DNA of 64,000 nt, taken from NCBI GenBank assembly GCA_036172245.1, contig JAYWIR010000008.1, positions 930,001 through 994,000 of the forward strand. The letters are read 5' to 3'. Below are positions 6,505-64,000 of the stretch, piece by piece (the stretch's first letter is position 1; each line of letters begins with the position of its first letter). Origin of the DNA: Raillietiella orientalis. Taxonomy: Eukaryota. Position numbers and translations under genes: made by a program. Below the pieces are notes generated by a model. It did not search any database, had not been told where the DNA came from, and saw only the letters and a program-made list of their open reading frames with translations.

Positions 6505-9500
6505 CGTGTGTGTGTGTGCGTGTGTGTGTTTTGAGGGGGGGAGTAAGAGGATCCAATTGTTACAATAACCTTCCCCCACCCCAACCCCTTCTTGTTCTTC
6601 GTTTTTTTTTTTTTATTTCTGATGTCACTTTTCGAGAGTGTGTATGCTGCTTTGTGATTGGTTCATAACTTTGAAAGAGACATATGTTGACTTCCAAAAC
6701 AAACAGGACGTTTTTTTCTTTTCTTTTTTTGTTCTCTTTTTCTTTCTTTCTTTTCTTTGCTTTCTTTTCCTTTTTTGCACATTCTTATCGCATCTCATGC
6801 ATCTTATGTTTAGTTGAAAGAGACCCCTTGATCTCTGATCTGAAATGCAAAAATTAGCCAAGCATGATGCATTTTTTTTCTTGTATGCACACCACTATCA
6901 ATAAGGATTGTATATATTGCATACTTTAGGGTTATAAACAACCCGTTAAAATCTCTGGTTAGTAGAATTCTGCCTGCACTTCTTGAGCACGGATTTTAGT
7001 AGCTCTCACAGTTTGTGTTCCTACGTTTTGATAGCTCTCTTTGAGATGTTTTCCGGGATTGCTACAGGAAAACCAGAGAATTCCGTCAGACATTGCACTC
7101 GAAGGATTTATGTCATGGATCATGATTGTTTGTATCTAGAAACTCCTTTGCTGATTTTTAAACCTTAAAAGAAAACATCCAGCGCGGGATCCAATGGAGG
7201 GCCGCGGCCCGGGTGAAATTTGTGCTCCTTGTGTTCCATTGGGGTCGTTTTTCTTCGCATCCACACGTTGCCTCTTCTCATTATCGGGTTACGAATCCGT
7301 TGCTCTGTGTTTTTTCGTTCTGGAGAAACTTTTCATCCCATCCATTGAGAACGGAAGAGCCCGTTTTTATTTCTTCTTTTGCAGCGCCGCATTCTAGCGT
7401 TTGCTGCTAAAACATGCTCTTCTATTCTAGAATCGCACGCTACGATTCCTGTCTTTTCTGCTTCAGACATTGGACCAGCTTCCAGGATTTGGGATCAGCA
7501 CGAGAACAATAGTTCCTCGAAGTCAATCTCGTCCCCCACGCTTGTTCCCGGTAGCGGCGACTTTGTTGGGCTGAAGAGCAGCAGCAAATCCCAATCGAGG
7601 CAGAGTCTCCTTGACGTGTTTGGCCAGAAGTTGAACACGAATTCCAGGAAAAGAGTCCCGAATGAGTTGTCCATGCTTGGATTCCTCAACCACTTCTCGT
7701 CAGAACGGGACATCACTCAGAAATTGAGGAACCAGATGAGGAAGGAGATCAAGGAGAAGCTGAAACCGGAAAATCATCTGATCGACAAGTCTCTGTGCAA
7801 CTGGACATTCGTGTTCGATCCCGCGGGACGCCTCTGTTACTACTGGTCCATGATCCTGTCCCTCGCTTTCCTGTACAACTTCTGGGTCCTGGTGTACAGG
7901 TTCGCCTTCCAAGAGATCAACTCGGACACGATAATTTTGTGGTTCTGTCTGGATTACTTCATGGACTTTGTGTACGTCGTCGACATCGCGTTCCACTTCC
8001 GAACGGCTTACCTGGAAGAGGGCGTGCTCCAGACTGACACCACGAAACTGAGACACCACTACATGAACTCTATGACATTCTACGTCGACTGCCTGTGTCT
8101 CCTGCCCCTCGACTTTTTGTACTTGTCCATCGGGTTCAACTCCCTGCTAAGGTGCTTCCGCCTGATCAAAGTGTACAGGTTCTGGGCATTCGTGGATCGC
8201 ACCGAGAGGCACATGAACTATCCCAATGTGTTCCGCTCCCTCAACCTTTTGCACTATCTGCTGGCCATATTCCACTGGAACACCTGCATCATCCACATCA
8301 TTGCGAAGAACAACGGGTTTGGAAACAGCGAGTGGGGCTACCCGAATGTGGCGGGCGGCGAAGACACTCTCCTTCAGTACCTCAGGAGCTACTACTGGTG
8401 CACCCTCATCTTCACCACGGTCGGTGATCTGCCCAGGCCTAGAAGCAAAGGGGAGTACGCCTTCATCGTCGTCGAGCTGCATATCGGTCTGATCTTGTTT
8501 GCCACTGTCCTCGGATACATAGCGAATATTGTGACCAATGTCAGTACCTCCAGGAAGGAGTTCCAAGGTCAGCAACAGTATATCTTGTTCTTTCGATCCA
8601 GCAAACACTTTGCACCAATCTAGCGGCACTCCCAAGATGCTGCTGCCCCCGTCGCCTCTGTCCCCTATCTGTCCTTCTCTATCGTGAAAATTCGCCGACA
8701 TTTGCTGTTTCGTGGTTTCCTTGATTAGGTGTGATCGTTAGCGATCGTTTCCGACTTACATCGTTAGTGGACTGTCGACAATGCGAAAGCGCCGGCGGCG
8801 GTCCACTGGAAACGAAAAAGTGCGTTTCCGAAATTCCGGTGTCCTCCCGTAACTTTATAGAACTCCCGCGATTCGGAATGAACACCGACGCAGCACGGCG
8901 GACTGTCTGATTCGTCTCCACTGTGATCACACGAGTTTGTGTCATCGGGGGTTTCTAAAATCAGGAGAATAAGGTCGAAACGAGGATGGACGTGGAGCAT
9001 CCTCATCTCGAAAAGCTTATTCAAGACCCCCATCCCTTGATCACCGGCAAAGAGATTTCACGCGCGGATTTATCAGAGACGCCGTTCCGTTCGCAATGCT
9101 GCGTGGGTATGCATGGATGAGTAACAGGAGCTCTCGGGAAGGAAGGGATCAGGATAACCGCATGTCCGGTCTGGACCGGAACGTATGATTCTCGGACTTA
9201 AGTATAAGCAACAAGCAGGTTACCGTGCATCTACGTTCCGCGTTCGTTATCTGTGTGCAGCAGGAGTGGATGACGCACATGTTAGCTCCGTGAGAATCAA
9301 CTATGCCACTCTGCTGACACTTCGATTCCATTCGGCTTCACTGCTCTGGGGCATCTAGGTAGTGCACAGAGAATTCCGCAGAATACTTTAAAAACCCGTG
9401 AAAAGATCGAAAAGATAAGGTGGTTGGCAGGGCAATCTCTGTTCGCCTAGATGATGACGGCCAGCGTGTTCGTTTTGGGGAATCAAAGGGGAAGGAAAAC

Positions 9501-43900: not shown

Positions 43901-44304
43901 AACAAACCTCAATTCACTATACTTCTTAACATTTACCATTAATGATCGATATTTTAACTGATCTTGTCTCTTCATTATTTAAGCTCGTAAATACATCCAA
44001 GACTTTTTTACTTGCTAAAAACACAAAAATGGAATAATCAAAAACAGTAATTGAAAAAATCAATAAGAAACAAACCAAAGCAATTCTTACTAAGCAATAT
44101 TTACGCGTCACTAAAGGGAAAATCACAATGAAACGAAACGGTACACTACGCATTTAAAGCATCTGACTCTACTCCAATGCTACAGGAATGTTGTTTTGAG
44201 CATTAGTCTCACTGTTTTACAATTACGAGTAGGCAAATAGCTCGTTGCTAGGAAAGTTCTCCCCACCAAGCGTCCTCACCGGTGATTCCGGATTGATGAA
44301 ACAT
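37925..44304 (-). CDS. TWF: Twinfilin (two ADF-H domains plus C-terminal tail), 8 exons, 346 aa
   Basis: Minus-strand exons 44304-44280, 44014-43937, 43019-42908, 42862-42700, 42641-42404, 41201-41058, 41014-40893 and 38083-37925, total 1041 nt with consistent phases. Twinfilin hallmarks: [80 protein letters not shown]...FAKPK. Confidence 0.96.
38871..38967. repeat. Tandem duplication of a 45-bp unit (2 copies plus 7 nt) in the last twinfilin intron
   Basis: cacgcaatccgatcgcgtgcgtgcacgctttcccgcgagtgctcc occurs identically at 38871-38915 and 38916-38960. Confidence 0.95.
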
Positions 44305-44587
44305 AGATTTACACCCGCAGACGTTCTCCAGTCGAAGGATGGGGAAAACGGGAATGGCAATCCTTCAGGATGCTGCACAAATCAGCGAGCCGCCACCGCC
44401 ACGGCCGAATGCACGCACGAATCGGTCTGAATTTACAGTTAGTCGAGCTGAGCCATCGAACCCGCTCGCAGGAGCGCCACCCGCAATTTTTCCGGGGAGG
44501 GCCGTAAATGGGCACTCCGGGAGTTGTTTCCACCCGGGACCGTTCCCGGAATATTCATCGGGCAAATGTACGCAGTGGCGGAACTGG

Positions 44588-45596
44588 ATGCAACGGCTTA
44601 AGCAAATATGTGACTTGTCAAGCTGCAGAGAATGCATCGTTGTTATAGATGAGGACATGTATAAGAATAGGTTTCTGATTTCCGTTTTGTGTGAAGGTCA
44701 GCACCCTTTTTTTTTTCTCTTTCAGATTCCAGGCAACACAAATAAATTTCAGGATGTTTTTTTTTTTTTTTTCTGAAAACGAAAATCATAGCAGAAGAAC
44801 GGAAAATCATTTTTCGCCATGTATAGATAAAAATCTCCTTCCCCAAAAAACATCATCGAGTGAGAAAAACAGTAACTTCAACTATGGTCGCTGTTTTCCA
44901 ATTACAAATCAGCCAGATGAAGATATTTTTAAATAACATTTTCAATGATTTTTTTCAAACATTCCTTAATTCTACTGTCATAAATGAATATTCGCATCAG
45001 CGAGATTAAAAATCTATCATTTTATTCCTAGATCACATGAAGAGCACGTGAAATAAAATAACTGCATTCAATACATTTTTTGTCATTTTCGTATTTACTA
45101 CTCGATACGATGAAATCTTAAGAAGCAAAATTTTGCTTCCAGGTGGAAATTTCAACAGTTCATCAGAGATTGAGATCAACCGTCCAAATGTAGGTCTCTC
45201 TTCGATGAGACCCTGACGGGAATATTTTGCACACTTAAATTTTCTTGGTATTCAGTTTGCTGGTAATTTTCTTGCTGAAAAGAAATGAACGCCTATAACA
45301 TAAACAGAAATTTGTTTTCATTTAGAAAAAGAGTATCGCGAAGCTTAGAAGGAAAGGCATGAAAACAAAAATATACGTAAGCAAGTAAATTAAGTACCAA
45401 TAGTGTCACATTTTCCCATTGCAGGAGGGAATGAGCAATCACATTTATGGAGTCATTAGACTGAGAATGTAAGTTTTCAAATGAATAGTGATCTATCGAA
45501 GCAATTTGGACTTCAATTTTAGATTTTCATCTCTTTTACAGGAAGTACGTCATGCCCTCAGTATTCTTTGCGTTACTAGTCGATGTTAAACAGTGA
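44588..45596 (+). CDS. Candidate small orphan gene or spliced uORF (5 exons, ~101 aa; 184 aa if started at ATG 44339), no recognisable family
   Basis: Exons 44588-44696, 45143-45189, 45326-45376, 45425-45468 and 45542-45596 join through GT-AG sites (donors GTCAGC, GTAGGT, GTAAGC, GTAAGT; acceptors TTCCAG, TTTAG, TTGCAG, TTACAG) into one uninterrupted frame ending in TGA. Confidence 0.4.
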
Positions 45597-47432: not shown

Positions 47433-50400
47433 ATGCTGTTGCGAAAAAGTTTCGAAGCCTCATTTAATTTTAATGGAACTCCATCGAAAGTTCTGTTTTC
47501 TCCTAATAAATCCAGACTTTCATGTGCAAGAGCAGATGTAACAAAAGATGATTCCTTTGTAATGACGATAGGCTCTGTAAGTTTTTGGTTTTTCGATCAT
47601 TGTTAAAATAATATGGGTGAAATATTTCCATGATAGAACGATGATGAAAGTGAAAGAAGAGTCCGGGAAAAATTAATCGCACAGCAAGAGAAACGCAACT
47701 CCTTAAGTACTTCATTTATTTCAAATTCATCTAGCAAACAGCCGGTATCCTCTGGCTTAAGCAACACCAAATTGCAGGAATGCTACTCTGAATGCATTCG
47801 TTTGTGTGCTTTAAACGTAAGAAGGTTCAGAATGTATCGAAGTTTCAGTTTTTAAAGGTTTTAACAGAAGATTAATGCAAAAAATGCATTTCAAATGGAG
47901 CTTATTGATTATATGGAAGAAATGCTGAAAAGAAAAGCAGAATTTTGCACTTTTCAGGTATATGGTGAAAGTACATTTTTTACTGAGAAATAGCAAGTAT
48001 TTGTATTGGGAATAAATGTGATGTTTATGTAAACAGTCGTTTAGGTATATGCAAAGATGTTTCAGAAATGTTATTTTAAAACAAATGAGTCCCATAATCG
48101 GAATGCATATTGCTTCTTGAAAGGATGAGTTTTTACATTGTTTATGACTTAATGGTTTGCATAGAATTTGGGAAATTAAACTCACTTTGTGAAGTGGAAG
48201 GACGCAGCTTATGTACCAAAGTTATAGGTTACATATTCATAAAAGGCATATAACAGTATTTTTTCAAAAAAATTGGAAGGCATTTATCTGTAAGGTTGCA
48301 TAATTACAGGCCCTATATTTATGAAATCATGAAATTAAGAAGGAAAATTTTGTGAGGTTGTACAGCAAAATTGATTCCAGCCAATTGTACTTTTTGACCT
48401 ACATTGTTTAAATCAAGGAATATTCCATATTATTTCCTCCTTTACTATTTGCAATGGTACATGTAGATTTTGAGAATGAAAAAATTGATCTTCTAACCTT
48501 CTATGCGTTACTGTGTTTCATTTTTGATTTGTTTTTCCTCTTTTAGTTTTCTGGGAGAAGCAGCTTACATTTATAATTTCTAAAATGTATAAGTAAGTTA
48601 GAAATTTATTGATCAAGGAAAAGTTGTAAGATGTTTTTCTCATCATTTTTGATGTGTTCATATTGAAAAATGGAACACTGTATTTTTTTCATGGAAAGAG
48701 CTAAAATCTTTCAATCTAAAATTGAGCTACAAAAGCTACTCTCCAGGGAGATGATATGATAATCAGTTTATTCTAATATCTTATCTATTAGAAACATGTT
48801 TAAAAATGGAGCATCTTGGGGATTAGTTTTTACATGAATTAAAAAAAATGAAATATGGGGTAACAACAAAATGTATTGCATGATCTTGGAGCACAAGGTT
48901 GAAATAAATATGTTCCATGAATAGCAAGGGAATGATTGATATCACAGTGAACTTAAAATCAAAGAATACCAAAGCAGGGCATTCACAATTAGAATTTTGA
49001 TAAGTTAAGCATCATGATTTTGAACACTTTGTTTAAATAACTTATTTCATTGAGTAATTATTTTTGTTGAATCGTATGCATCATTCTAAAGAATTTCTTT
49101 GTTAGTCTCAATTCTCTCTGCTACCATTAATCGTGTTTGTGTTCATATATTTGAACTATTACTGCATTGTTGAGTTCCTGTTAATCAGAATTTTAAAGAC
49201 AGAGATTCTTATTTGTGATATGTGCACATTAATTTTCCAAACATTTTTCAAATAATTGCATTTTTATTTTCACTGAGAACCTCGTATTTTCTTGCCAGCA
49301 TTAGTCTAGAAATTTTTGATATTTTAGACCACTGCAATGTGTCTTCAATTTAAATTATATACCCATCAATGATATTTAACAAAGCTCATCCAAAAAATTG
49401 AAAAAAGTATGGATTGTTTTCTGCTCATATCAATTACCTTTCTTATTGCAATTTGGCATGATTTTCAACTTCAGTCTGATTTTACATTGCAAATGACGTA
49501 CAGTTACTTATTAATTGCATAAAGTTAAGCAAAAGTGCAATAGTAATTCGTATTCTTGTTTCTTGTGCTCCTAACTGAATGGAAAATTATGTTATGCTTC
49601 TTCTCCATGATTGTATAATTAAAAGAAATCGTGAATTTCTGATTAAAATCAATGCAAGTAGTTGTGTCTGCCATTGCCATTATTTCTAAATGTTAGTTCT
49701 TTTGTATTCTTTGAGTGAGTTCATTCAATAGTATTTATTTTTCTATTTTCGTGAATCATTGAAGTATTCTCAGAAAAGTTGCATGAAAATCAGTGGCATA
49801 AAGCTTGTGATAAGAAGGAATTGCACTTGAAGACAATCTTATAGTTTGAAGTTGTTTATTATTATGGTTGTATCCAGAGTAAGTTGAAGTTACAACTGTT
49901 GATTGTGTTGAGAGTTATGTTTGGGATTAGGATGGTAATCTCAAGACACTTGAGGAATAATAAAACTATAAGTAATAAATATGAATTATATTTGTACTCA
50001 CATCCAGGACCTTTAGGAAGTATTGGCATTCATAGATGCAAATTTTTGACTGGTTTTTAAGGAATTTCTTGTATATTTCGTACATTTATGCAGTCTTATG
50101 TAACAAAATCAATTTTTTTCTTGGAATGCTAACATCTTGGAAGACTCCAAGAAAAAAAGAAAGTTTCATTAATCAAGAAAAGTTAATTATTAATTATTTA
50201 GTGATTCTTAGTGTATCAAATATTTTTATCAGAGAATAAATATGCTCTGCATATTTATTTTTATTGGTTGGTTTAAAATATTTAAGGTGTCATTTCCATG
50301 TTTTAAGCCCAGAAAGTTTAAAATAAATAAATGCTCTGCATTTCCGGTCCTTGTTCTCTAATGTAGTGTTGAATCTTTGGGTTAAACACATCTTATTTTA

Positions 50401-53400
50401 TTTCCAGCATCGTAGCTGTCTGTGTATATGTGTGTGTTTTTTTTCCTGTTGATCCTTCTCTGTTCAGTAATCACTGATAATTGCAAAGCACTATAGAATT
50501 CGTTTGTTATTATCTGTTTATGCCTTTGTTGGTTTGTCTTTGATTTCTTTATTCAGTAGTAATGGATCAATGTTTAAATTTTAGCTGGTAGCAGGCACCC
50601 TTGATGCAAGTGCAAAAATTTATTCATACAGAGTTGATTCTGTGCATAATGATACTCTAAAGATGGCTGGAAATATATCTGGTACTTCCAAAAAGCCAGA
50701 ACAGAAAACAGAAAGTGAGCCCCAAGCAGAAAGCACCAAACAGGTAGAATTTTTTTTTCTTTCCTCCTTTCTTTTTCTAGATATTCATTGCATTGCCATC
50801 AGCTTCATTGAAATATAATACAGTCATCAGTTTAAAAATTTTAGAGTAAGAAAAAATATACAATTGAGACCAATTTATCGAAAATAAACATCAATAAATT
50901 GGATTTGCATACACAAGCAGCTTCTTTATTTTATCGCCTCAGACTTATCTTTGAAGAGAAAGGTTTTGGTAATGGAAGTTTTTTGAGTACTTTTGAACCT
51001 GAGACTGATAGTTTGGAATTAAAAATTGATCTTGATGAGCCATATCTTCAGCATGAAATTCCATCATCAGTGCCACATTATCAACAGCATAACTTATTCA
51101 GTAAAGATATCAATTAGTTTGGTTTATATGCTTTTATCACTGCTTCTTTGCATAGGTGTTTTCCGAAGTGCAGTTTACAAGACTGCATCCATATGTCCAA
51201 AATATAAAGTTTTGTTAAATGATGCAACTGGTGACAAATGTATCACTCAGCAGCATGGCACAATAGATATGGAATCAGCAGATTTGAATGCTCTTGAAAA
51301 TGATGAAGATTTTCCTATTTTTGAGGGTCAGTTTTCTGACTTTAGAATATTCGTATACTTTTAATGATTTTCAGGAGCAGATGCTGGATTAGAAAGTAAT
51401 GTTGAAAGCATGGAATTAGAAAAGCATTCAGATCTACCTTCAAGACAGTTTGGTGCAAAAGAAGGTACCAAGTGCACAGATTCTAGTTTAGTTCCAACAA
51501 CATCACAATTGTTGTCATGCATTACTGCTCATCCTTCAGAGTATTCATATTTTGATCCCAACATGATGTCAGCATGGGTTGGATCACAACATTGGAAATA
51601 TAAAGCTACTTTTAAAGGTATTTCAACTGTATATAGCTTCTAATTTACATTTGTATTTACTGCATATTGAAACTTGAATTCACATTAAATTAAAGTTTGA
51701 GTTGGGTTTTGTAGTAGAAATCTTAAAGACTAATTGGTGGCTAGCTTACTGGCTTAACAGTTTTGTCTAATGAAATCACAATGTTTTTAACCTTTTTTTA
51801 AAAAAAGAAAAGAAAAAAAAGCTAGCAGCAGTAGTCACAGAAGAGCAAAAATTTTTCATTTTAATTAGAATTTTTTTTTGACTATTATGATTGTATTATG
51901 AGAATTAACAAACAAAATTATTACTATATTTGATCATCTATCATAAATTTCTGATAGTTTTTGGTTCTTGATATCACATTCTGTATGTAGTTGGGATAGG
52001 TCAGTATTAATGCCTATGCTCTTAATATCATAAAACTTCAATATCATCTTATTTGTTTGGTATACAATCTTAAGTGGGGTTGAATTATGACATGCTGAGT
52101 ATTTGTGTATCTGCAAACATGAATACTTATGTAATAATTGCACTAATACGGTAATTAGTTTTTTATCTGTGGTAAATATTGAGTTTCGTTTCATATTTAG
52201 TGATTATAGAAAATTCATGCATGTAACAAGTACTAGGTAACAAAATCCTTATTTAGTTACATTTTATAAACATAGCTATCAACAGAAACAAGGAAAACAG
52301 AACTTCTAGAAGCAATGCCAAATATTTTGTTAAATTCGATGACACTTCTCTTGCAAAGGCTGCTGCTTTGTGCAGTTCCAAAAATGCAAGAAATATCAAC
52401 TTAGTACCAAAGACTATGAAAGAATGGAATGAGCGCAAAGTGACATTACCAGCAATCTTCCACTATAAAATAGAAAATTTCTTTAGGTACGTTCACCATT
52501 TTGTAATTTTCGACTTTACAATGCAATTTCTGATGAAGGTTTTCAGGGAAACGGAATTTGCCCGTCAAGCTATCGTGTACTGAAAAATTGAGGGAATGGT
52601 TTGAAGGTGACCAGTGTTATGACTACAACAATCCAAATGACAGCATTAACTTTTGTCCCTCTTCACAGGTTAGCCAAATGGCATTCTCCATGAAAGCGAA
52701 AGTGAACTGTCTAAAAGCATCATTGCAAGGGCAGCCCACTGTTTTTAAAATAATGTTGATTAAAAGAATTTAAAACAATCCTGATTTAAAGAAATCCGTT
52801 AACAGATAATTTTTTCGGTTGGTTGGTTGGTTGGTTTTTAAATTATATCGAAAATTACAGAAAAGTTGAATTCAAATACCATTCAACTGTTTTAGTTTTG
52901 CAAAAACTAAAACACCTGCATAACTTTGTTTTGGTGCCACACTTTGCTTTAGATAGTGGACCTTCTTTTAATAATTCAGTAATGTAATCACTTTGCATTT
53001 TCCCATTGGGCACGATTGTTCTTGAACAATTCTTATCTTCTTGCATTGAAATTAATATCTTCTAGCAAAAAGTCCTGGTAAAAAAAAAAAATATTTCCAA
53101 TTCAAAATCGAGTCAATTAGTAGCATTTTGCATTTGATTGCATATCATGTAAGTGTTATTCAGAATAAAATTAATTAGGAGTAAATCCATTGAACAAAGT
53201 CTGCTTCTTTGTTTTGAATGTAGGCATTTTAATAATTTAAACATCTTTTATCTGAATTTAACGGTTTGCTTTAAAGTTGGTGTAATCAGTCAGTATAATT
53301 ATTTCCGTGATTCATCACCTAGGAATATGCAAGTACATGTTCTTAATTTACCAGATTTGCTTAATTTTCATGCAGCTTGTTTTATGATTGTCTAATTCCC

Positions 53401-54351
53401 CGATTGCTGAGAAACATTTTGTGAGCATGTCCTAAAAAAACTTTTGGTTATAATTACTGGTTGGCTTACCAGGGAGATAAAGTTGGAGATTTACCAGAAG
53501 CTTGCTCCCATGAGATTACACATGAAAACATGGAGGGAGAATTTGAAATGCCTGATCCTTATTCAAGTGAAATTCCAATGAATTGTGAGCTTTCATTAGT
53601 GGATGCTCCAGCTAAGGTGGGTATTTGTGGTCTACTTGTTAACAAGATAGTTTCAGATCCCTCGTTCCGAAATATCGTATGCTCGCCTGCCAAAAATTGT
53701 GAACATGAAGAAACTGAAAGTTACCATGTGGTCTATATTGTCAGGAGTTGACATCACACAGATGGTGAGTTTTGTACTTGTAGTGGTGTAATAGGTTCGC
53801 TTGATTATAAAAGAAATAGATTGCACCTTGTTTAAAACACAATGCAATTTCCGAGTATTTTATGGCTTTGCAAAATATTTGGTTACCTAGAGTGTGTTTA
53901 TGTGATCAATTGGGTCATTATACGCATTAATGCATGTGGTTTGGAAGAGAATTCTTTGTTTTAAGCAATTTTGGTTTTTCCAAGTGTAATCGACGGTAAA
54001 GCTTTTCACTTTGTAAGCAGTATACACAGGTGAATTTTTATTACTCTGGCATGCATGACCACTTAGTATATGCAGTCAAGCACAGCACTGTACATTATTT
54101 AACATTTACTTCTATTCCAGAATACCGGTGACAAGGAAAACATCGAGTCATTTCCAAATACTATAACAAAGAAATTTGACTTTACAGAGGTGCTTCATCA
54201 GCTGCCTCAAAAGATGAATGAGACAGCTGCAGAGAACATAAGTGTAGCGCTTGTTTTTGCTTCTCTGCTTCACCTAGCGAATGAAAAGTGTTTAGAATTA
54301 CAAAACACGGATAACAGTGACGATTTGATCATCACACAATTTTCAAATTGA
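47433..54351 (+). CDS. NCAPH: Condensin complex subunit 2 (CAP-H/Barren kleisin), 12 exons, about 688 aa
   Basis: Exons 47433-47576, 47637-47816, 47868-47957, 50585-50743, 50845-51100, 51156-51326, 51375-51617, 52276-52486, 52539-52668, 53473-53616, 53657-53764 and 54121-54351, total 2067 nt. Cnd2-family motifs: NDDESER, CIRLCALNKINAKNAFQMELIDYM, AGTLDASAKIYSYRVDSVH, EYSYF...WVGSQHWKY, YDYNNPND..NFCP, ISYARLPKIVNMKKLK..MW, ISVALVFASLLHLANEK. The start codon is uncertain. Confidence 0.94.
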
Positions 54352-54965
54352 CTCTGAACTACAAAGTCATATTTTATAGGGACAAATAAGTAATTTTATT
54401 TTATGCATATCCATTGTTGTTGTTGTTGTTTTTTAAAAAAAAATTGCCTTCCTTGTAATTTTTCCTAATTAGTTTTCTCATCAGTCAGAAAGTCGGTTGC
54501 ATATTTTCCCAAAATTATTCTTGAAGGTAAATGGGTTTCATATTCATAGATTCCGGTTGATCACCCGGAAGTGCCACGTGATTGGAACAACAAACAACAA
54601 ACAACGACTGATTTAACGAACAAGTATTTTGTTTTCTTTTTTTTTTTGTTTTCTTTTTTTTTTTTTTTTTACGAAAACTTTAAAATGGGGGTCCACGTAA
54701 ATGCCTTTTCCGCGAGATTATGATATTTCGCAACAAAAATATTTTTTACATCTCAGCAGCTTCAAGTTTCTGGTTTGGCTGCGCTTAGTAGAGGAAAGCT
54801 GTATCCCAGTAAATGAGTCCCATATTTGACAAGACAGTAACTGGATGTTCCGCGCGGTGTGGGGCTGACGTTGTGCATCCGTTTTTTCCCAGCTAAATCC
54901 TTTCGCAAGCTTGAAAAGTACAGCTGATGAAAGTGAAAACGAGATCACAAATATAGGGGGAAGGC

Positions 54966-55298
54966 TTTTTTTTTTCTTTTCTTTGTTTTAAATCGGCGTA
55001 CGTGCGTTGCCGTAATGTGCCCCGGTCGTGCGGGTGTGAATCCACGAAGTCCACTTCACGGATCGTTGCGTCACCTGGCAACGAATCTCGTGTTCTATCT
55101 ACCTTGTCACTGCCTGTGGCACCCTTGTCCCAGCAGGAACTGGCGACCAAAAGAGAGGTTCCGCTGAAAAGACCAGAGCGCTTAGTGACCATGAAGCTGC
55201 GCTTCCTAGAAATGCAGCCGGTAGCTCCCCCAACCTTCAGGGGCGACCAGAACTCTGGAAGTTACACTTTGATCTTAGCCAAAAGGCCGAGAAGCGAT
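54966..55298 (-). mobile_element. U2-headed ~335-nt non-coding element with A-rich tail (candidate U2-derived SINE or non-autonomous Utopia derivative)
   Basis: U2 head, then a ~270-nt GC-richer body with several hairpins (55247-55258, 55193-55220, 55064-55083, 55039-55064), then TTTAAAACAAAGAAAAGAAAAAAAAAA (54992-54966). No target-site duplication found. Confidence 0.4.
55263..55298 (-). pseudogene. U2: U2 snRNA 5' fragment (nt 1-36)
   Basis: The minus strand reads ATCGCTTCTCGGCCTTTTGGCTAAGATCAAAGTGTA, the conserved U2 5' end with stem I. It breaks inside the GUAGUA branch-point recognition sequence; no Sm site or U2 3' half follows. Confidence 0.92.
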
Positions 55299-56710
55299 CT
55301 GTGAGGTTACGTGCAGACATCGTGTGCGAAGAACTGCAATCAGGTTTCCATTGTACCCGGTTTGCTCCTTCAAAATGTAGTCAAGATCCATTTGTCCCTC
55401 TTCCTATTCGATCGTTGGACCTAAGGATATTTATTCATACATTAATGAGACCATAACATTGATGGACAAAATAGCTTGTTTCGTTCGTTGTCTCCTGATT
55501 ATCGTACCAGAAATCCTGCATTCAAATTACATACGTTTAGTTTCGTTCACTTTTTATGTTCCTATAAGGCGATTGATGGCTTCTGGATAATTCGAGATGA
55601 AACGATCCAGCTAACGGTGTAGGTGTTTTCTTGAATGCTGATAATTAGTTTCTGGCGTCTTTGAATTACGTAGCTTTTTCTTACCTCCTTGTCGTCACTC
55701 TCTCCGGGAGTTTTCTCATTTCCTCCGCTGTGAAGCAGTCTAGGAGATGCACTTCCCTGTCGTCTCCGCAGGTTCCTCGCCCAATTTGGTCCATTCAAGG
55801 ATAACGTACTCGGAGTGCATCATCGCGAATGCTGTGGGGGGCGAAAGACCTCCTTATGTCACTGCCGTTGGCGACGGAGTTGTGTGGCTGAGTCCGGCCG
55901 CATCAAAGTCCTCTTCGGGGACATTGGGCAGCTTCCCATGCAGTCTCCAACACTACTTTCAGTTTTGAGTTTCATGTGAAGTCGTTTTTAGAAATCGTCC
56001 AAAGAAAAAAAAGGAAAGCTACGATTATTTCATAAGGGCGACAAGGGTCCAATTTTATTCCAGTTTTTTTTTTACCGCAGTCGAAAGAGCTGTGTCCTCT
56101 TATTCGCTTAGAAAAATTTTTTTTTTTTTAAACAAAAATCCCCGATCTCTGAGCTTTCTTCATTATCTTGGCTTCATCTTGAAGGAGGAGGATAAGGAAC
56201 TCTTATTCGGATTCCTCTCGAAAAGGTTTCGCAATGAAACTGGACTCCCTTGCTCCGGCTCAAAGATCTCTTGAAGGATCAATACCGCCTTTCATCTCCC
56301 TCTTGAGTTGGTTTCGAATGCAAATGAGGCAGTCGTCCCCACAATCCGTAAGCTGCAATTCTCTTGCTAATCAGCTTCGTAGGGTTTCTTCGTTCAAACG
56401 CGCGAACCCTTCGCCCATTTCAAACTCTCGGATACGAAGGGAAGTATTTTCCACTTCAGAGCACTATAAAAGTTTTTCGCCCCCAAAATGCTAGACCGCG
56501 CGATTATTAAATGTCTACATTGAAAACGGAAAATTAGAATGCAAAGAGTAGTTCATCCATAAAGAATCATAATAGCTAAGTTTAAGACCTACGTAACTAT
56601 CAAGAGAAGAAAACTTTTATCGTAGCAGAAAGTATCCTGGGGACTGTTGATCCACTTTGGCCTTAAGGTCAATGGTGAAACATCGACTTTATAGCCTTTA
56701 GTCTAAAGTC

Positions 56711-59401
56711 TTTATTACTTTAAAAGATACAGGGTTCCTCATTTGGAGAGAGCTCGTATACAAAATGGACGGAAAACAAGACTGATTGCCGATTCACGGT
56801 ATCGCAGCATCATTCGCGAGTTGAATGTTCTGGATGCTGGATCTCTTTTGGAGGGACTCATGGTCGTGGAATGTTTTCATCCGTTGATCCTGGGGAGGCA
56901 TACCAGATTTAGCAGTTGACGGCGGAACTGCTACTTCACGGAGGCTCTTCCATTTTCAGAGGCCACGGAAGGCAAACAGGAAGCGGCACGGGTTGTGGAG
57001 GTTCTCACTTTTCGAGGGACTTCACCAGTAGGTGAGGGGTCGAATTCCTCAGGGCGATCGTCACTAGCTGCATCCTCGTACCAGCTAACTTTGTGTTCCA
57101 CGGCCTGTTCCTCGGAGCGTGGTTCAGTGTTGTCGGCACCTCTGCAAGATGTTCTGGAACCTATCGAGGGAACGGGGCTGCGAACCGTATGCACAGGGGG
57201 CACAAGTGGAACACTGAGCGTGGGGTTGGGGTTAGCCGTGGGCTAGCCGGGCGGGAAGGGTCGAGGTTTGTCAGGCAGAGAAACGCATCCAGAGCCTTGG
57301 TGCATGGTTGGTACTTGATGTGTTTCGCGTAGATATCTCTGGATGCTCTTATGACGGCTGCGATCACCCTGTCCCTAAGGGCTTTCGCATGCGGCTCGGG
57401 TGTGCCAAGTCTGGCAAGGACTTCATCGCTCCTTGGCTCCCAGGCTCTCAGTGTGCCGATGGTGAATGCATCAACGCAGACCGTCATGCCGGAGTTGCGG
57501 AAATACTGGGCAAGCTGAGCATGCTTTTTGACTGTCTCTGTCTGCGCAAATCTGGAGGAGTCTCGAAAGTTCTCAAAGGGGGTGGCAACGTCGATGATGG
57601 CAGCCTGGAAGTCGTCATAGACAACAAGGTCGGGTCGGAGGGAGGAGTTTGAATAGCCCGCTTGTTGGCCGGTTTGGAGTCTGAGCCAGTAAGGGCACGA
57701 GGTTTCGGTCAGTTCCTTAAGGACTAAGTTGTGGCGCTCGGTTATGAAACTGCCAAGGTGGTATCGGCAGTGGGCGAGTACGTGGCAGATAGATTCCTTG
57801 GGCCAGGTGCATCTTCTGCATCTCTCAAAAAAGCCGGGGCGCTTCATGTTCCCATTGAGCGGCAGTGAGTTCAGCCGCGCTCGATGGATAAATCTCCAAT
57901 CTGAAAAACAGAGAAACACATCTCAGAAGAAAGCTGTCAGAGGCAGGATGCAGGGAGAGACAGTCCATGATTCGACCCTCAGCAGGATTGCTGAGCAGTG
58001 TAGATGTTCTGCCCATCCGCTGCATCGAGCGAATCGTCCTGGCCACTTGCCAGACGCAGGTAGCAGGTGATCCGTTTGCCAGGAATTGAAATGCCAATGG
58101 AATTATCCTGAACGGATCAGGACAGCGGGAGCCTTCTGGGGGATTCCCGCACTACTGGCCAGGAGCTCTTTGGGTCGCCAGAAGGGGCATTAATGGGAGA
58201 CACCGTCACCATTCAGGAAGCGCGCTATGGTAATGTTCGTTGGGAGAGAGCGGGATTTGCGCCTCAGCACTTCACCCAATGAACTGCGCGCGAGTTCACG
58301 CACCAGGGGAGAACAAAAGCTTGAAAACGGAGTCCATGAACATGATGGAGCTCTCTTGCTGGAGAATGTGACATCCAATGCCTCCAACAGGAGCAGCTAT
58401 GTAGAGGTACTCCGCAGAAGCGGCTTGAGGGAGGGTGAGCATCGAGATTTCAGTGCTTTGTTAATGATGTTCAGCTGCTTATGAAAGGTGAGAGGCTTGA
58501 AGTGCATTCGAAGAAAGCGGGTGAGGGGAGGAAGGGGGAAGACCTTGAGATCATCCAATTTCTGCCAAGGGGTCAGGGCAGAGTCGAAAATCCGTTCCAA
58601 GTTCTGAAGAATTTCCTCTTCTCCAGCATCCTGTCTCAGGGCGTCGGAGTGATTTATAATGTTAGGATTATGGGGTTCGTGAGGTTTCCTTTTTAGAAGG
58701 TTATTATAGAAAAGATTATTTAGTAGAATGAATATGGTTTACCCAGGTACTCTTATGCTTCATTGTTCTGGAGTGCTTCTGCCGTTCCCTAGATGGTCCT
58801 CAAGAACGAAGTTACGTTCAAGAACCCCGTCGAAGGGGAGGAATCCTTTCCGAAGGGGGGCTGATGATTCCATTGCGGAGGGTCCAGTTGCTTAGTCGTC
58901 TGGCTAAACACTTGGCGAAGAGCTTGCATGGTGTTGCCGATCGCAGTCGGTCGGAACTCCTTATTCGTTCTCATCCGCGAGGTTGTGCTTCGGCATAAGA
59001 ATCGAGTAGCTGTCTTTCCAGTCAACTGGGAGTTTTCTATGGGCCAGGAAGATGTTGAACAGTTTTGATAGCAGCACACATTGGGGATCCTCTCGCAGGA
59101 GGTGATCATATGTTATCCTATCGGAGCCAGGAGAGGTGTTTTTACTCGCGGAAAGAGACTCAAGTGTCTCGAGGGGAGAAAACGGGTAGAGGTCCATGGT
59201 GTCATGGGGGGGACAGATCCTCGCAACAGTCCAGGAGGAAGCTGGCATCGAACTCGCGAGGTGCATGGAGGAGAAGTGCTGCTCTGTGGCATCTCAGTTC
59301 ACTTCACATTGTTTTCCGCGTTCACAAAGAATCACAAAGTTCACAAAGATCTCTCGCATCACCTTCCTGCGATTTACGCGGCACAGATTTTGAACTTTGG
59401 A
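56711..59401 (-). mobile_element. Degenerate RLE-type non-LTR retrotransposon, Utopia/NeSL-like; 5'-truncated, with the RT core deleted
   Basis: Minus-strand fragments in order: pre-RT motif SKVQNLCRVNRRKVMREI (~59400-59345), RT 0-2 (PFSPLE, SPGSDRITY, WKDSYSILMPK, FRPTAIGNT, KGFLPFDGVLERNFVL), EYLGKP, thumb DSALTPWQKLDDLKVF, DWRFIHRARLNSLPLNG, CCHC knuckle CRRC...ESICHVLAHC, RHN, and RLE LRPDLVV...IIDVATPFEN. There are frameshifts and stops. The 3' end is placed at AATAAA (56716-56711). Confidence 0.9.
57161..57919 (-). pseudogene. Zinc-knuckle plus restriction-like endonuclease portion of the retrotransposon ORF (open for 252 codons)
   Basis: ORF track 57161..57919 contains CRRC-x8-H-x4-C, RHN, and the PD..D motif (RPDLVVYDDFQAAIIDV). 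Confidence 0.85.
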
Positions 59402-59436
59402 ACACTTTGATCTTAACCAAAAGGCCGAGAAGCGAA
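59402..59436 (-). pseudogene. U2: U2 snRNA 5' fragment (nt ~1-35) fused to the 5' end of the retrotransposon
   Basis: The minus strand reads TTCGCTTCTCGGCCTTTTGGTTAAGATCAAAGTGT, with 2 substitutions relative to the copy at 55263-55298. Retrotransposon coding sequence follows immediately. Confidence 0.9.
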
Positions 59437-59548
59437 GTCCTCGGTATCCGATCTCGATTCACTGATATTTCCAATCAAATTATAGTAAAACTACCAAAAT
59501 AGAAAACCACATGATTATTAGTATGCTGGGTTTCTGAGAAAATATCCA

Positions 59549-59604
59549 TTTTACATAGTTAATAGCTAACTCGAAATATCGAATTAGCTATTAACTATGT
59601 AAAA
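59549..59604. repeat. Perfect 21-bp inverted repeat (hairpin/cruciform)
   Basis: ttttacatagttaatagctaa (59549-59569), spacer c-tcga-aata-tcga-a, ttagctattaactatgtaaaa (59584-59604). Confidence 0.95.
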
Positions 59605-59614
59605 GCCACTGCTA

Positions 59615-61351
59615 TAATGAAGTCCGTATTGACACCTCACTTTGAAACGCTCTTCTTGATGTTATAGAGACTGGTCCTTTTAGTATTTTCATTGATGAAT
59701 CCAATGATATTAGTGCGACTAAAATTCTAGGAATCGCTGTTGTATGCTTCAGTCATCAGTCGGGAAGGGTGGAATCTCCTTTTTTGGCATTGGCTGAACT
59801 TGACGCACTTGTGATGAGGAATCTGTCTGTTGCTGCTACTGTGAAGGAAACACTTGGTAGTAAAGGATTGAACAGTCAAAATATGAAAGCGATTGGTGTC
59901 GATCATGCGAGCGTCGTGACTGGCGTGTGCGCGAAACTGAGAAGTGAATGCCCAGGGCTTACAGTGATCCGTTGCGAGTGTCACTCTCTCCAATTGGTTG
60001 TTTCTGCAGCCTCAGATTGCTCTCCCACTTGACTTTTTTTTTTTTCTTGACTTTTTAGAGAGAGAAGTCTATAACTGGTTTTTCCATTCTGCCTTACGGC
60101 GAGATGGTTACAAGGTTCTATTTGCTGCCATGAATGATGGGGGCAATCCTAGAAATATTGTACAGAAGTGCCAGACTCGTTGGCTGTCGATTGAGACTGC
60201 AATAAACAGAATTCTGGATCATTGGGTAGAAATCAGTGCTATGTTTAGAACTGCGAATACAGCAGAGAAGAGAAAGATTATACAGCATCCCTTTTGAGCA
60301 ATATGCTTTCTGATGAGAAAAACCACGCATTCCTCCTCTTCCTCCTACCAGTATTGACTGACGTGCGTAGGGTAAACAAATCATTTGAGGTCAGTAATGC
60401 CGACTGTACCAAGCTCTTGGATGATCTGGCTGGTTTGATGGAGAACACGGCCAAGAAGTTTGTGTTTCCAACCTGCAGGAAGGACTTCCTTACAAAAAAT
60501 CCTGATTGTGTTCACTGGCGTTCCTATCTGGGCTATGAAGTTGAGGAGAAAATGCATCAAATCAAACTGCCATCAGGAGAAAAAACTGACTTCAGCAAAA
60601 GATGCATTATCTTCCTTATTAGATTAAATAAACAGCTTCAAGAAAGACTGCCTCATAATATCTTTATATTAATGACAGTGACATTAATGACAATGTCAAT
60701 AATTTTCGTGTCCCGTGCTCTTCGTGTTGTCAAAGTCCATTGATACCATTGATACAGCACCTCCAAATTCCATCAGACCAGATTGCAAAAGCAAAAATCC
60801 AGTAAAGAGACAAGTGTAAAGTGAGAGAAAGCTGCCAGAACAATTGAACTCCGGAGTGAAGTAGCTAAAGTCGCATCTGTTGAATCCATTTCACGAGTTG
60901 GTTGAAGTAATGTTCTTCCATGGTCTAACGCTCAAGTAACAAGAATCTTCGGCTTGATGCACATCGTGAAGTCAAAACTACGAAACCAGATGGAAACGGA
61001 ATTGGTCAATGCAATTCTCACAATCAGGGAAGGTCTAGACCTCTTTGAAAAATGCTGCAAGGATTGTCAATTGCATCAGAGGTTTCTAAGGAAAACAGGT
61101 AACATTGGCTGCCTACAGAAATGAAAATGGACAAGCTCCAAGCACTTCACAATCGCGGCACTATTTCTTCGATGAGGATGATCCAGAGAACCTGCAATTT
61201 TGAACGAGTTATATATTAAGATCACTTTTCACTCATCAAATACTCATTGCATTTTATGAATAATAATAATTTCCTAAATATTAGAATCTGGAGCATCGCG
61301 GCTTTTCGAAGGCCATCTAAAGGATTCCATTAACTTCTGTTGGCAATGCTG
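59615..61351 (+). mobile_element. Decayed hAT-superfamily DNA transposon (ZNF862-like transposase pseudogene) with a putative right TIR
   Basis: Frameshifted fragments: FSIFIDESNDIS (first catalytic D), IGVDHASVVTG, IRCECHSLQL (CxxH), CQTRWLSIETAINRIL, and C-terminal dimerisation-type LPWSNAQVTRIFGLMHIVKSKLRNQM. GTTGGCAATGCTG at 61339-61351 resembles a CAG..TTGCCA hAT terminus. No left TIR or BED finger found. Confidence 0.85.
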
Positions 61352-61810
61352 AAAGTAACACTAGACGGGGATTACTTAACTCTAGGGCAGCTAATGGTGC
61401 GATGTCTTGGAGTCCCTCGCGATGATGTGCGTATGAATTCGACGTCCACGGTCCAATGAACGGGAAAAACTAAAAAAGGAACGAATGAAAAATGTGTTAG
61501 AGGGAGGCAAATAATCAGGAAGGACGATTGTAATTTCAGAGTTAGGTGTAGTTCCCAGTTAAAGCTATCCTCTTGATATTGTTCCCAAGACGCGCGGTTG
61601 AAACCTGTACGCGAAACCTAGTACATACAGTCGTGGTAAAATGGTATATTCGGAAGTGAACTGCATCAGTTCCATAGTAAAAATCAATATGTAGACAGGA
61701 ATACGGTTATTTGAGTACGATTCCTGTTTCGTATTCTGTTTACAGAATATTTCGCACTTCACTGAAAGTAACATTAATCGCTTAATTCACTTTCTGCAAC
61801 CTTATTCAGG

Positions 61811-64000
61811 ATGGATTTTACTGAGTGCTATTCAGATACTGTGTCTTCAGTAAGTGCTGCAGCCAGACTTGGTCAGTCTCAGTTGCTCAAAGTCTTGTTG
61901 GGGGAAAAAAAATCTGCAAACAATGAAGATAATCGTGGATGGAAACCAATTCATGAAGCAGCTGCGAATGATCGTTTATCGTGCCTCGAATTATTGCTTG
62001 GTAATATGCCTCTTGTGTTTTTTTTTCTTTTGTATTTGTGGTATGTGCACACAAATTTCAGTTGTGCTCACTTCATCACATTCATTAACCATTTGCATTA
62101 AAATTGGTTCTATAATAAATACTTCTCTTGTTCACGCATTATATGCTGCCCCGTAATGTAACAAGCAAACGCATGTTATATGTTTGGTATGGTTTATTTG
62201 TTTTTGTAAAGTTCATACAAGCACGCATTTTAGGAGTCAGTGATGTTAACTGCCGTACCTTTGAAGGAGAAACCCCACTTTTATTGGCTTGTATGAGTAA
62301 TAGCTCACTAGCAGTTATTGAGTGCCTTATTAATAATGGAGCCGATGTTAATTTAGGCGACAATGAAAATTTGAATCCATTACATGTTTGTAAGTTTTAC
62401 AGTTTGTTTCATTGCAGCATGATTGATTGTAGGTGCAAGTTTGCACAACCATGAAATACTCAAGGTACTTCTTCAAGCAGGAGCAGATGTGAACTGCCAT
62501 GAAGACATGAATGGGCTAACACCGATCTTTTTGGCTGTTTCTAGCAATACACAAATGGTGATTGGATTTTCAAATTAGAATACATCACATGAGTAATACT
62601 AACAGCTAGACTGGAAATCAATTTGAATGAATGAATAACTTAAAGAAAAGGGGTTATATTTCTCTGTAAATCGTTTTTATGCACTGTTTTTGTGTATGCT
62701 GAGAAATGCCGTGATCAAAACTTTTTCAGAAAGAAGATCTAGCTTTAACAGTAAAGTACCTTATAGAAGCTGGTGCACACCTGGTTGAGCAATCTGATGA
62801 AAACTGGTTGCACTCTGTCTTGCTTGCAGCTGTTTTTTATGGCAACACTTTGGCTGTGTCTGTATTAATTCAGAACTTTCAAGAAATGGGGATACTATTT
62901 TCTCTGATAAATCTGGGGTAAAAACATTTGTCTGAATTCAGCTGTTATCACAAGTGTTATCTGATTCTCACCAGACTTGATGATCGTTTCACACCTCTGA
63001 TGATGGCTTGTCAAAAAGGCTCTGTGGAAATTTGTGAGTTATTACTGCAATCAGGTGCTGATCCCAATGCAATGGCAGAGGATGGCACTATGGCTGCAAA
63101 TAGTGCTGTTGTAGCTGGTAACCTAGAGTGAGTGGAAAGTTCTATTGGTTGTAATCCCTTCCAGGAATTTTCAGCGAATTGTCACCCTGACTGATCAGAA
63201 TATCCTCCAAAATCAGGGTTATCGTTTGGAACAGTTATGCACTGAACATCCCGTTTCTCTCACATGTGGTTTAGAAACCATTGATATCCTTAGCCAGACA
63301 AACATTTACTGTAATGTGCTCCGTATTGGCTCCATAGAGATGTTCCGGTGTCTTGTAAAACATGGTGTTTCCCCTGAAAAAACGTGCTTTTCTTTTGCCC
63401 ATGAGGTGGACATTGAGCACAATCTTTCTCAGTGTCTTACTGATTGCTTCTTATTGACACCATTTACTTTATTTCTTCTCTTAGTAAAATCTCAAGAGAA
63501 GGACTTGATCACTGAATGTTTTTCATTGAATTGTGGACATCAGGTAGTTCATGATGACCTTATTCCACCTTTGCTAGCATCTCTTCTACATCCCTCTTCT
63601 GATGTTTATAACTGTACACTACCTATTTGGTCATATAGCTTTGATTCCATGGGAAGCTATGTGGTCTTATCATTGTTGCAAAAAGGAGTTGAAGTCATGG
63701 ATGCTAGGTATTTTGTGATTTCATTTTTGTTAAAATTATGTTTGTTTCCAGACTAATAAACAACTTGCTCCTAGTAGCCTACCTCAATCCTTGTGCTGTT
63801 ATGCTATATTTGAACCAGATATCAGCAAATAAGATGCCTATCATGCATGATCGCCTGAAATTAGCTTATGGTAGTCATACTTTTGGTTGGCCTTTTTATT
63901 TTCAATGTGAAGTATAGGTAATTGTGGGACAGCTTTCAAATGGACTTCCTTCCTCCATACCTGGCAACTGCAACCACTTGAGTCTGTTTGTTTGCATCTC
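61811..64000 (+). CDS. ASB3: Ankyrin repeat and SOCS box protein 3-like, 5' part (3' end outside the window)
   Basis: The N-terminus MDFTECYSDTVSSVSAAARLG...DNRGWKPIHEAA matches my recollection of the ASB3 N-terminus ([21 protein letters not shown]...DNRGWMPIHEAA). Exons 61811-62000, 62234-62389, 62433-62557, 62730-62917, 62975-63127, 63165-63707, 63752-63870(?) and 63918->64000 carry multiple ankyrin repeats (TPLLLA, NPLHV, TPIFLA, TPLMMA). The SOCS box is not visible in the window. Confidence 0.85.

Follow-up and report, generated by a model that had tools for sequence, protein, structure and literature searches.

What is a 333-nt stretch of DNA that begins with the 5' end of U2 snRNA, runs on into some 270 nt of unrelated sequence, ends in an A-rich tail and lies beside a retrotransposon of a type that inserts into U2 genes? 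The question arises in a window of 64 kb (the whole stretch of DNA that was analysed), in which a preliminary description had proposed the unit to be a candidate U2-derived SINE. The unit is probably a by-product of the neighbouring Utopia-type retrotransposon lineage. In its make-up it resembles a chimeric retrocopy with an snRNA head, or a retroposon of the SIDE/SINEU type, but it cannot be classed as a SINE. The presence of two U2-headed copies outside U2 genes fits Utopia RNAs that would begin where U2 transcription does and take the U2 head with them, a point that is not discussed in the available part of the Utopia study (Kojima & Jurka 2015, PMC4640811). The features of the unit and of its surroundings are collected in Table 1.

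Table 1. Features in and around the U2-headed unit, in window coordinates
Feature	Position	Strand	Basis or remark
Whole unit	54966-55298	-	U2 head, body and A-rich tail, 333 nt
U2 snRNA nt 1-36 head	55263-55298	-	sequence; cmscan RF00004; comparison with fly U2
Body, 273 nt, non-U2, non-coding	54990-55262	-	BLAST, Smith-Waterman, Pfam, HMMER, Rfam, GC
A-rich tail AAAACAAAGAAAAG(A)10, 24 nt	54966-54989	-	sequence, TRF
Post-head junction segment TCCAGAGTTC	55249-55258	-	9/10 match to neighbour 59401-59392
GTAACCTCACAG, possible 5' copy of an imperfect TSD	55299-55310	-	10 matches in 12 columns
GTAACTTC-CAG, possible 3' TSD copy	55265-55255	-	starts at head nt 34
Last exon of the condensin subunit 2 (Cnd2/CAP-H) gene	54103-54351	+	Pfam PF05786, E = 2.7e-15, profile 705-764 of 764
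Dead, 5'-truncated Utopia-like (NeSL-clade type) RLE non-LTR retrotransposon	56708-59401	-	tblastn, motifs
Second U2 head, nt 1-35, T at nt 1 and nt 21	59402-59436	-	cmscan, 30.7 bits
Pre-RT/RT N-terminal region of neighbour	59401-58775	-	tblastn with full-length relatives
RT core replaced by AT-rich filler	about 58856-58619	-	tblastn with full-length relatives
CCHC knuckle and RLE of neighbour	57916-57308	-	within 253-aa frame 57922-57161
3' UTR of neighbour, ending GGAACCCTGTATCT...AATAAAGAC	end ~56708	-	GC drop and 3'-end motif

The exact 36-nt U2 5' end that had been claimed for the unit is present on the minus strand as ATCGCTTCTCGGCCTTTTGGCTAAGATCAAAGTGTA, which provides the small-RNA-derived 5' head (U2 nt 1-36) expected of a SINE or SINEU. 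It includes stem-loop I, ends before the GUAGUA branch-point-binding box and is identical to fruit-fly U2 at 35 of 36 positions (S1 Fig, PMC4640811). Infernal scored the head at 34 bits against the U2 model RF00004, whose gathering score is 46, with E-values of 5e-5 in a search of 801 nt and 0.004 in the whole window; the alignment truly covers only model positions 1-35. With 34 rather than 46 bits and only positions 1-35 represented, the unit lacks what defines a functional U2 snRNA gene (the gathering score, a branch-point box and an Sm site), and at the gathering threshold zero Rfam families were found across the 64-kb window. One base in the head, within GATCAAAGTGT, is extra to the Rfam U2 consensus. 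The same extra base is carried by the U2 of both the fruit fly and C. elegans (S1 Fig, PMC4640811), so that the extra A was ruled out as a derived mark common to the two U2 heads of the window; it is the normal fly and worm state. A literature word search for the GATCAAAGTGT motif returned no papers.

The body is likewise as first described, with 273 nt of non-U2 sequence and no recognisable coding content. Pfam returned 0 families for the three ORFs overlapping the unit, and a 122-aa sense ORF had 0 matches among 1.84 billion representative proteins when searched with HMMER. The plus-strand ORF that runs across the head is not protein-like, given an Atlas recognition score of 1148 and a best hit of 0.77. 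The body had no match in Rfam, no HDV-like ribozyme or other Rfam family was detected at E ≤ 10 in positions 54600-55400 or 50000-60000, a custom double-pseudoknot descriptor run without a positive control gave 0 candidates, and 0 tRNA-like heads were found between 50 and 62 kb. The unit had also been called structured. The hairpins named in that claim do exist, but the unit as a whole does not fold beyond chance: its MFE of -109 kcal/mol compares with -103.8 +/- 5.9 for shuffled sequences (z = -0.88), a stability equalled or exceeded by 20 of 100 shuffles. The best 40-nt hairpin was equalled or exceeded in 29 of 100 shuffles, while the sum of the top three hairpins is mildly unusual, being reached in 2 of 60.

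Composition sets the unit apart. The body is foreign to its surroundings, as it has 56.4% GC within a neighbourhood whose mean is 34.8 +/- 6.6% (273-nt windows over 40-64 kb, with both U2-headed units excluded). Windows as GC-rich as the body numbered 14 of 1959, all of them in one patch at 44.2 kb, and the GC-rich block is bounded exactly by the U2 head on one side and by the A-rich tail on the other. At 51.8% GC, the neighbouring element resembles the body rather than the local DNA of about 35%. The A-rich tail noted previously was confirmed, with 20 A in 24 nt. As evidence the tail alone is weak, because it is one of 15 T-rich tracts of at least 20 nt on the plus strand of the window; the chance of one such tract falling within 300 nt is roughly 7%. 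Smith-Waterman comparisons of the body with the neighbour, with the 1.4 kb between the two units and with the DNA beyond the tail gave z-scores of -1.05 to 0.78, and blastn of the unit against the window matched only the neighbour's head, apart from A-rich tracts. Short direct repeats that the body has in common with the DNA following the tail were rejected as chance (not collinear, z = 0.57).

By similarity and anatomy, the neighbour is a dead, 5'-truncated and RT-deleted Utopia-like element. It is most similar to RT proteins (1080-1179 aa) of a Centruroides scorpion, ticks, spiders and Drosophila yakuba, the closest being the 1080-aa Centruroides protein (42% identity, E = 1.5e-39). Ticks, spiders, scorpions and D. 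yakuba are all listed as Utopia hosts (Table 1 of PMC4640811). One relative, P0013, has an RVT_1 domain (E = 7e-34). The second U2 head is fused directly to internal Utopia-like coding sequence encoding SKVQNLCRVNRRKVMRE, which aligns to a conserved (I/V)Q.LYR.NRR motif that lies 230-510 residues into the full-length relatives; in tblastn, the motif VQNLCRVNRRKVMRE aligns to IQRLYRRNRRQAVR of these relatives from base 59395. About 225 residues of the RT core are missing, with some 240 nt of AT-rich DNA (37% GC) in their place; either a deletion with filler DNA or an insertion at a later time could account for this. This AT-rich stretch starts with GTACCTGGG, ends in ...GAGACAG and is intron-like in form. 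Further downstream, an alignment of 8 sequences has invariant residues at C35, C38, H47, C52, R96-P97-D98 and K133, which make up a zinc knuckle and an RPD...D...K endonuclease. The neighbour thus has the knuckle and the PD-(D/E)xK endonuclease of a Utopia element, with its RT present only as a remnant (core deleted in this copy). Its 3' end agrees with that of the Ixodes element Utopia-1_IS (S1 Fig, PMC4640811) at 14 of 15 positions by eye, and the 12-nt core of this motif, AACCCTGTATCT, occurs once in the window. In published Utopia insertions, the element lies directly before TCTGTTC, which is U2 nt 40 in fly numbering (PMC4640811); the neighbour's 3' flank is not U2. About 40 nt past that 3' end, at 56640-56670 on the minus strand, GGCCAAAGTGGATCAA holds GGCC, AAAGTG and GATCAA, which are scrambled pieces of the U2 head and are probably due to chance.

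The proposed link between the unit and this element is supported. As previously noted, the unit lies about 1.4 kb past the 3' end of the Utopia-like element on the same strand (1.41 kb from ~56708 to the head). Its head ends at nt 36, which leaves 3 nt to the site where Utopia is published to insert in U2, and the only other U2 fragment of the window heads the neighbour: the 64 kb contain just two U2 matches with E ≤ 1, 4.1 kb apart and on one strand. The composition of the two is similar, as given above, and they share a junction. In blastn, unit and neighbour align over 48 nt at 87.5% identity; the similarity begins at U2 nt 1/2, the heads agree at 33 of 35 positions and, after a 3-nt offset, TCCAGAGTTC matches TCCAAAGTTC of the neighbour at 9 of 10 bases. 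A match this good was found in 225 of 100000 random window pairs at the same offsets. These 10 post-head bases are Utopia coding sequence in the neighbour, and because they are internal coding, a 5' UTR start shared by the two units was ruled out. Upstream of the heads, the 150-nt flanks agree at 42 of 150 positions, with a best 21-nt block of 12/21. No promoter-like block common to both flanks was found over these 150 nt, and the low agreement implies that the two heads are not preceded by one and the same snRNA promoter. Neither after either unit nor anywhere else in the 64-kb window did Infernal find the U2 3' half.

We tentatively favor, with somewhat less than even confidence, the reading that the unit is a short non-autonomous retro-insert derived from a co-transcript of the U2 promoter and Utopia, or formed via a template jump onto such a co-transcript. 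Utopia copies within U2 genes, at nt 39/40, would be transcribed by the U2 promoter, and their RNAs would start with U2 nt 1 to about 36-39. Reverse transcription up to the RNA 5' end at a non-U2 site would then yield a copy with a U2 head that lacks the U2 3' half and the promoter. Heads that begin at the U2 start, without common promoters or 3' halves, are what would be expected if the head had travelled as RNA. The neighbour would be such a U2-headed copy of a 5'-truncated master. The unit would carry the same head and about 10 first bases of the element, followed by 273 nt of unrelated GC-rich sequence and the A-rich tail. It could be a chimera: the reverse transcriptase would first have copied the 3' end of a different A-tailed RNA and would then have switched templates to the 5' end of a U2-Utopia co-transcript. 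Alternatively, it could have arisen by deletion within a sister family, one with a 3' end that the window does not contain. A simple internal deletion within the neighbour's own family is unsupported, because the body has no similarity to any part of the neighbour. We infer co-transcription from the U2 promoter, with a template jump or a deletion, by analogy with other RLE elements. The RNAs of such elements are co-transcribed with their target, and the R2 RNA of many species retains as much as 36 nt of 28S (PMC3774820). In vivo, template jumps of the R2 reverse transcriptase onto U12 snRNA and tRNAs are documented as well (PMC3414825). The unit itself appears to be inert today.

Comparison with Utopia as described in PMC4640811 cuts both ways. 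The neighbour is alike in its RT remnant, CCHC knuckle, RPD...D...K motif and arthropod relatives, in a U2 5' flank that ends near the target and in a 3' motif resembling that of Utopia-1_IS; the small unit has the neighbour's head and its first 10 bases (9/10). Unlike Utopia, neither unit continues into U2 nt 40 onwards, and the small unit encodes nothing and has no UTR in common with the neighbour. The U2 3' junction is a constant feature of the strictly specific Utopia families (Tables 2 and 4, PMC4640811). The arthropod Utopia 3' ends depicted in S1 Fig of the same study have short A runs after AATAAA-like motifs and no 24-nt A-rich tract; the 24-nt A-rich tail of the unit differs from these, which counts against a Utopia origin. 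Two further findings count against a retro-insert. A TSD around the whole unit scores 3, as high a score being reached by 19364 of 20000 random flanks, and the match shared after the head is just 10 nt long and overlaps a competing TSD-like repeat.

It is less likely, and on present evidence we consider it unlikely, that the unit is one copy of a propagating SINEU-like SINE or SIDE family, driven by U2 or flanking promoters and mobilised by Utopia or another LINE. Its anatomy is that of a SINE or SIDE (a small-RNA head, a body of about 270 nt and an A-rich tail, 333 nt in total), it forms a discrete block of foreign composition and it has a 5' junction in common with the Utopia-like copy. SINEU families do have short U2 5' heads (32 bp in SINEU-3) and polyA tails (PMC4494074), and the SIDEs of R2 are examples of such parasites in an RLE element (PMC3414825). 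Against this reading, blastn found no second copy of the unit within the 64-kb window. Among the 22 listed sequencing runs, none of which covers the source genome, the best share of the unit's words was 0.08, the size of the head, and none reached at least half. A metagenome scan for the head and junction pattern, which likewise does not include the source genome, gave 5 matches; 0 of the 5 have U2 upstream and all are due to chance. The designation as a SINE itself is not supported, and no 3' tail or other stretch is common to the body and the neighbour: Smith-Waterman alignment of the body with the neighbour's 3' region (56500-57320) gave z = 0.32. Compared as a SIDE of Utopia with the neighbour alone, the unit shares 9 of 10 nt at the 5' junction and nothing of the 3' UTR. 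The 24-nt A-rich tail is present; no tail sequence is shared with the neighbour, the only LINE compared. Nor does a TSD flank the whole unit (score 3), the U2 head brings no internal promoter (as stated for U1 and U2 in PMC4494074), and no ribozyme-like element was found in the unit with Rfam or the custom descriptor.

The known snRNA-headed retroposons differ from the unit in several respects. SINEU elements (Kojima 2015, PMC4494074) are alike in their short U2 head, length below 500 bp, polyA-type tail and the lack of an internal promoter in the head. They are unlike it in being multi-copy with shared structures, where a single copy is known here, and in being moved by Tx1-Mar, an APE-type element, with Mariner as the preferred target, whereas the LINE associated with the unit is RLE-type. 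In the available part of that study they are reported only from crocodilians, whereas the host of the unit is arthropod-like. The SIDEs and 5' extensions of R2 (Eickbush & Eickbush 2012, PMC3414825) are alike in deriving, as non-autonomous or as snRNA- or tRNA-headed copies, from an RLE element that is target-specific and co-transcribed, with variable 5' junctions. They differ in consisting of an HDV-like ribozyme joined to the R2 3' UTR, within the 28S site; in the unit neither a ribozyme nor a parental 3' UTR was found, and its site is not the target gene.

It is also rather improbable, slightly more so than the preceding reading, that the unit represents a live or recently live U2-headed arthropod family that arose within U2 genes, is expressed from the U2 promoter as an RNA of the form U2(1-36)-body-A-tail and depends on Utopia for its mobility. 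If such a family were real, the Utopia/NeSL clade would have its first LINE/SINE (or SIDE) pair, and a SINEU-like element would be known for the first time outside crocodilians; searches of the open literature found no SINE with Utopia as its partner. Should more copies of the 273-nt body exist, they would show the birth of an snRNA-headed SINE from a target-specific LINE and would bring invertebrates into the range of SINEU-type elements. If it is a single dead copy, the unit is an ordinary by-product of retrotransposition.

A yet more doubtful alternative is that only U2 nt 1-33/36 was inserted, as a tailless retropseudogene formed by internal priming, next to a body and a T-rich tract that were already there. 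The class has been described by Noll et al. (2015, PMC5322556), whose criteria are a complete 5' end, a 3' truncation of at least 10 nt that falls in a single-stranded region, a length of at least 30 nt and a TSD of 8-35 nt at no less than 70% identity. The unit could pass this published screen: its head begins at U2 nt 1 and is thus 5'-complete at about 33-36 nt, and it is flanked by GTAACCTCACAG and GTAACTTC-CAG, a candidate TSD over the 3' end with 10 of 12 matches whose 5' copy ends exactly at -1. T-rich tracts are, moreover, frequent in the window (15 in 64 kb). This TSD is imperfect despite a near-intact head, and 469 of 20000 random 15-mers score as well. The body has too high a GC content for local DNA (the 14 of 1959 windows given above) and is bounded exactly by head and tail, and chance would have to account for the 9/10 match to the neighbour at the junction (225/100000). 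In the available part of PMC5322556, the class is documented for therian L1 and not for arthropods. The tail, the foreign composition, the shared junction and the neighbour itself would all be left unexplained.

The least probable reading is that of a relic in situ, in which a U2 gene or pseudogene was struck by a 5'-truncated, A-tailed LINE (a second Utopia family or a Keno-like element), of which about 270 nt are left, and the U2 3' half was lost. Extreme 5' truncation is usual among non-LTR elements and fits such a relic. The head ends no more than 3 nt from the target site shared by Utopia and Keno, Utopia 5' junctions are variable, and Nasonia and Phytophthora have more disrupted than intact U2 genes (Table 3, all PMC4640811). 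However, the U2 3' junction is near-universal, 74 + 20 of 94 N. vitripennis 3' junctions being U2 or Utopia (PMC4640811), whereas the 3' flank of the unit is not U2 even though 35 of 36 bases of its head are intact. The same loss of the U2 3' half would be needed at the neighbour too, the upstream flanks of the two units have no promoter-like block in common, and tblastn with 8 full-length relatives gave no match in 54900-55350 at E ≤ 10. The suggestion of a remnant inserted in a second U2 gene, which had been raised previously, is accordingly not upheld, as no U2 3' half lies downstream and the upstream flanks are unrelated.

Several other observations were made in the window. A second T-rich tract, of 44 nt and with a period of 17-22, lies at 54627-54670, 296 nt beyond the tail of the unit and in the same orientation. 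The DNA between the two tracts (54671-54965) therefore also ends in an A-rich tail on the minus strand; neither Rfam nor the tRNA and repeat searches gave a match in it. A block of 24 kb (16000-40000) has 58-64% GC, against 30-39% at 40-56 kb, and holds long ORFs in all six frames; the ORFs submitted from it gave 0 Pfam families. The sole other patch of the AT-rich half that matches the GC content of the body, at 44241-44640, overlaps a 158-aa ORF (44300-44776, plus strand) without a Pfam family. An uninterrupted exon of 424 aa at 7349-8620 on the plus strand encodes a cyclic-nucleotide-gated channel alpha subunit and is 55-75% identical to arthropod proteins. The host appears arthropod-like because the homologues of this exon are arthropod, and its species seems to be unrepresented in the database, as the exon has no near-identical protein there. 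The unit lies 615-950 nt downstream of the last Cnd2 exon, in antisense orientation, and both U2-headed units sit between this exon and ankyrin-repeat exons at 61778-62451 on the plus strand.
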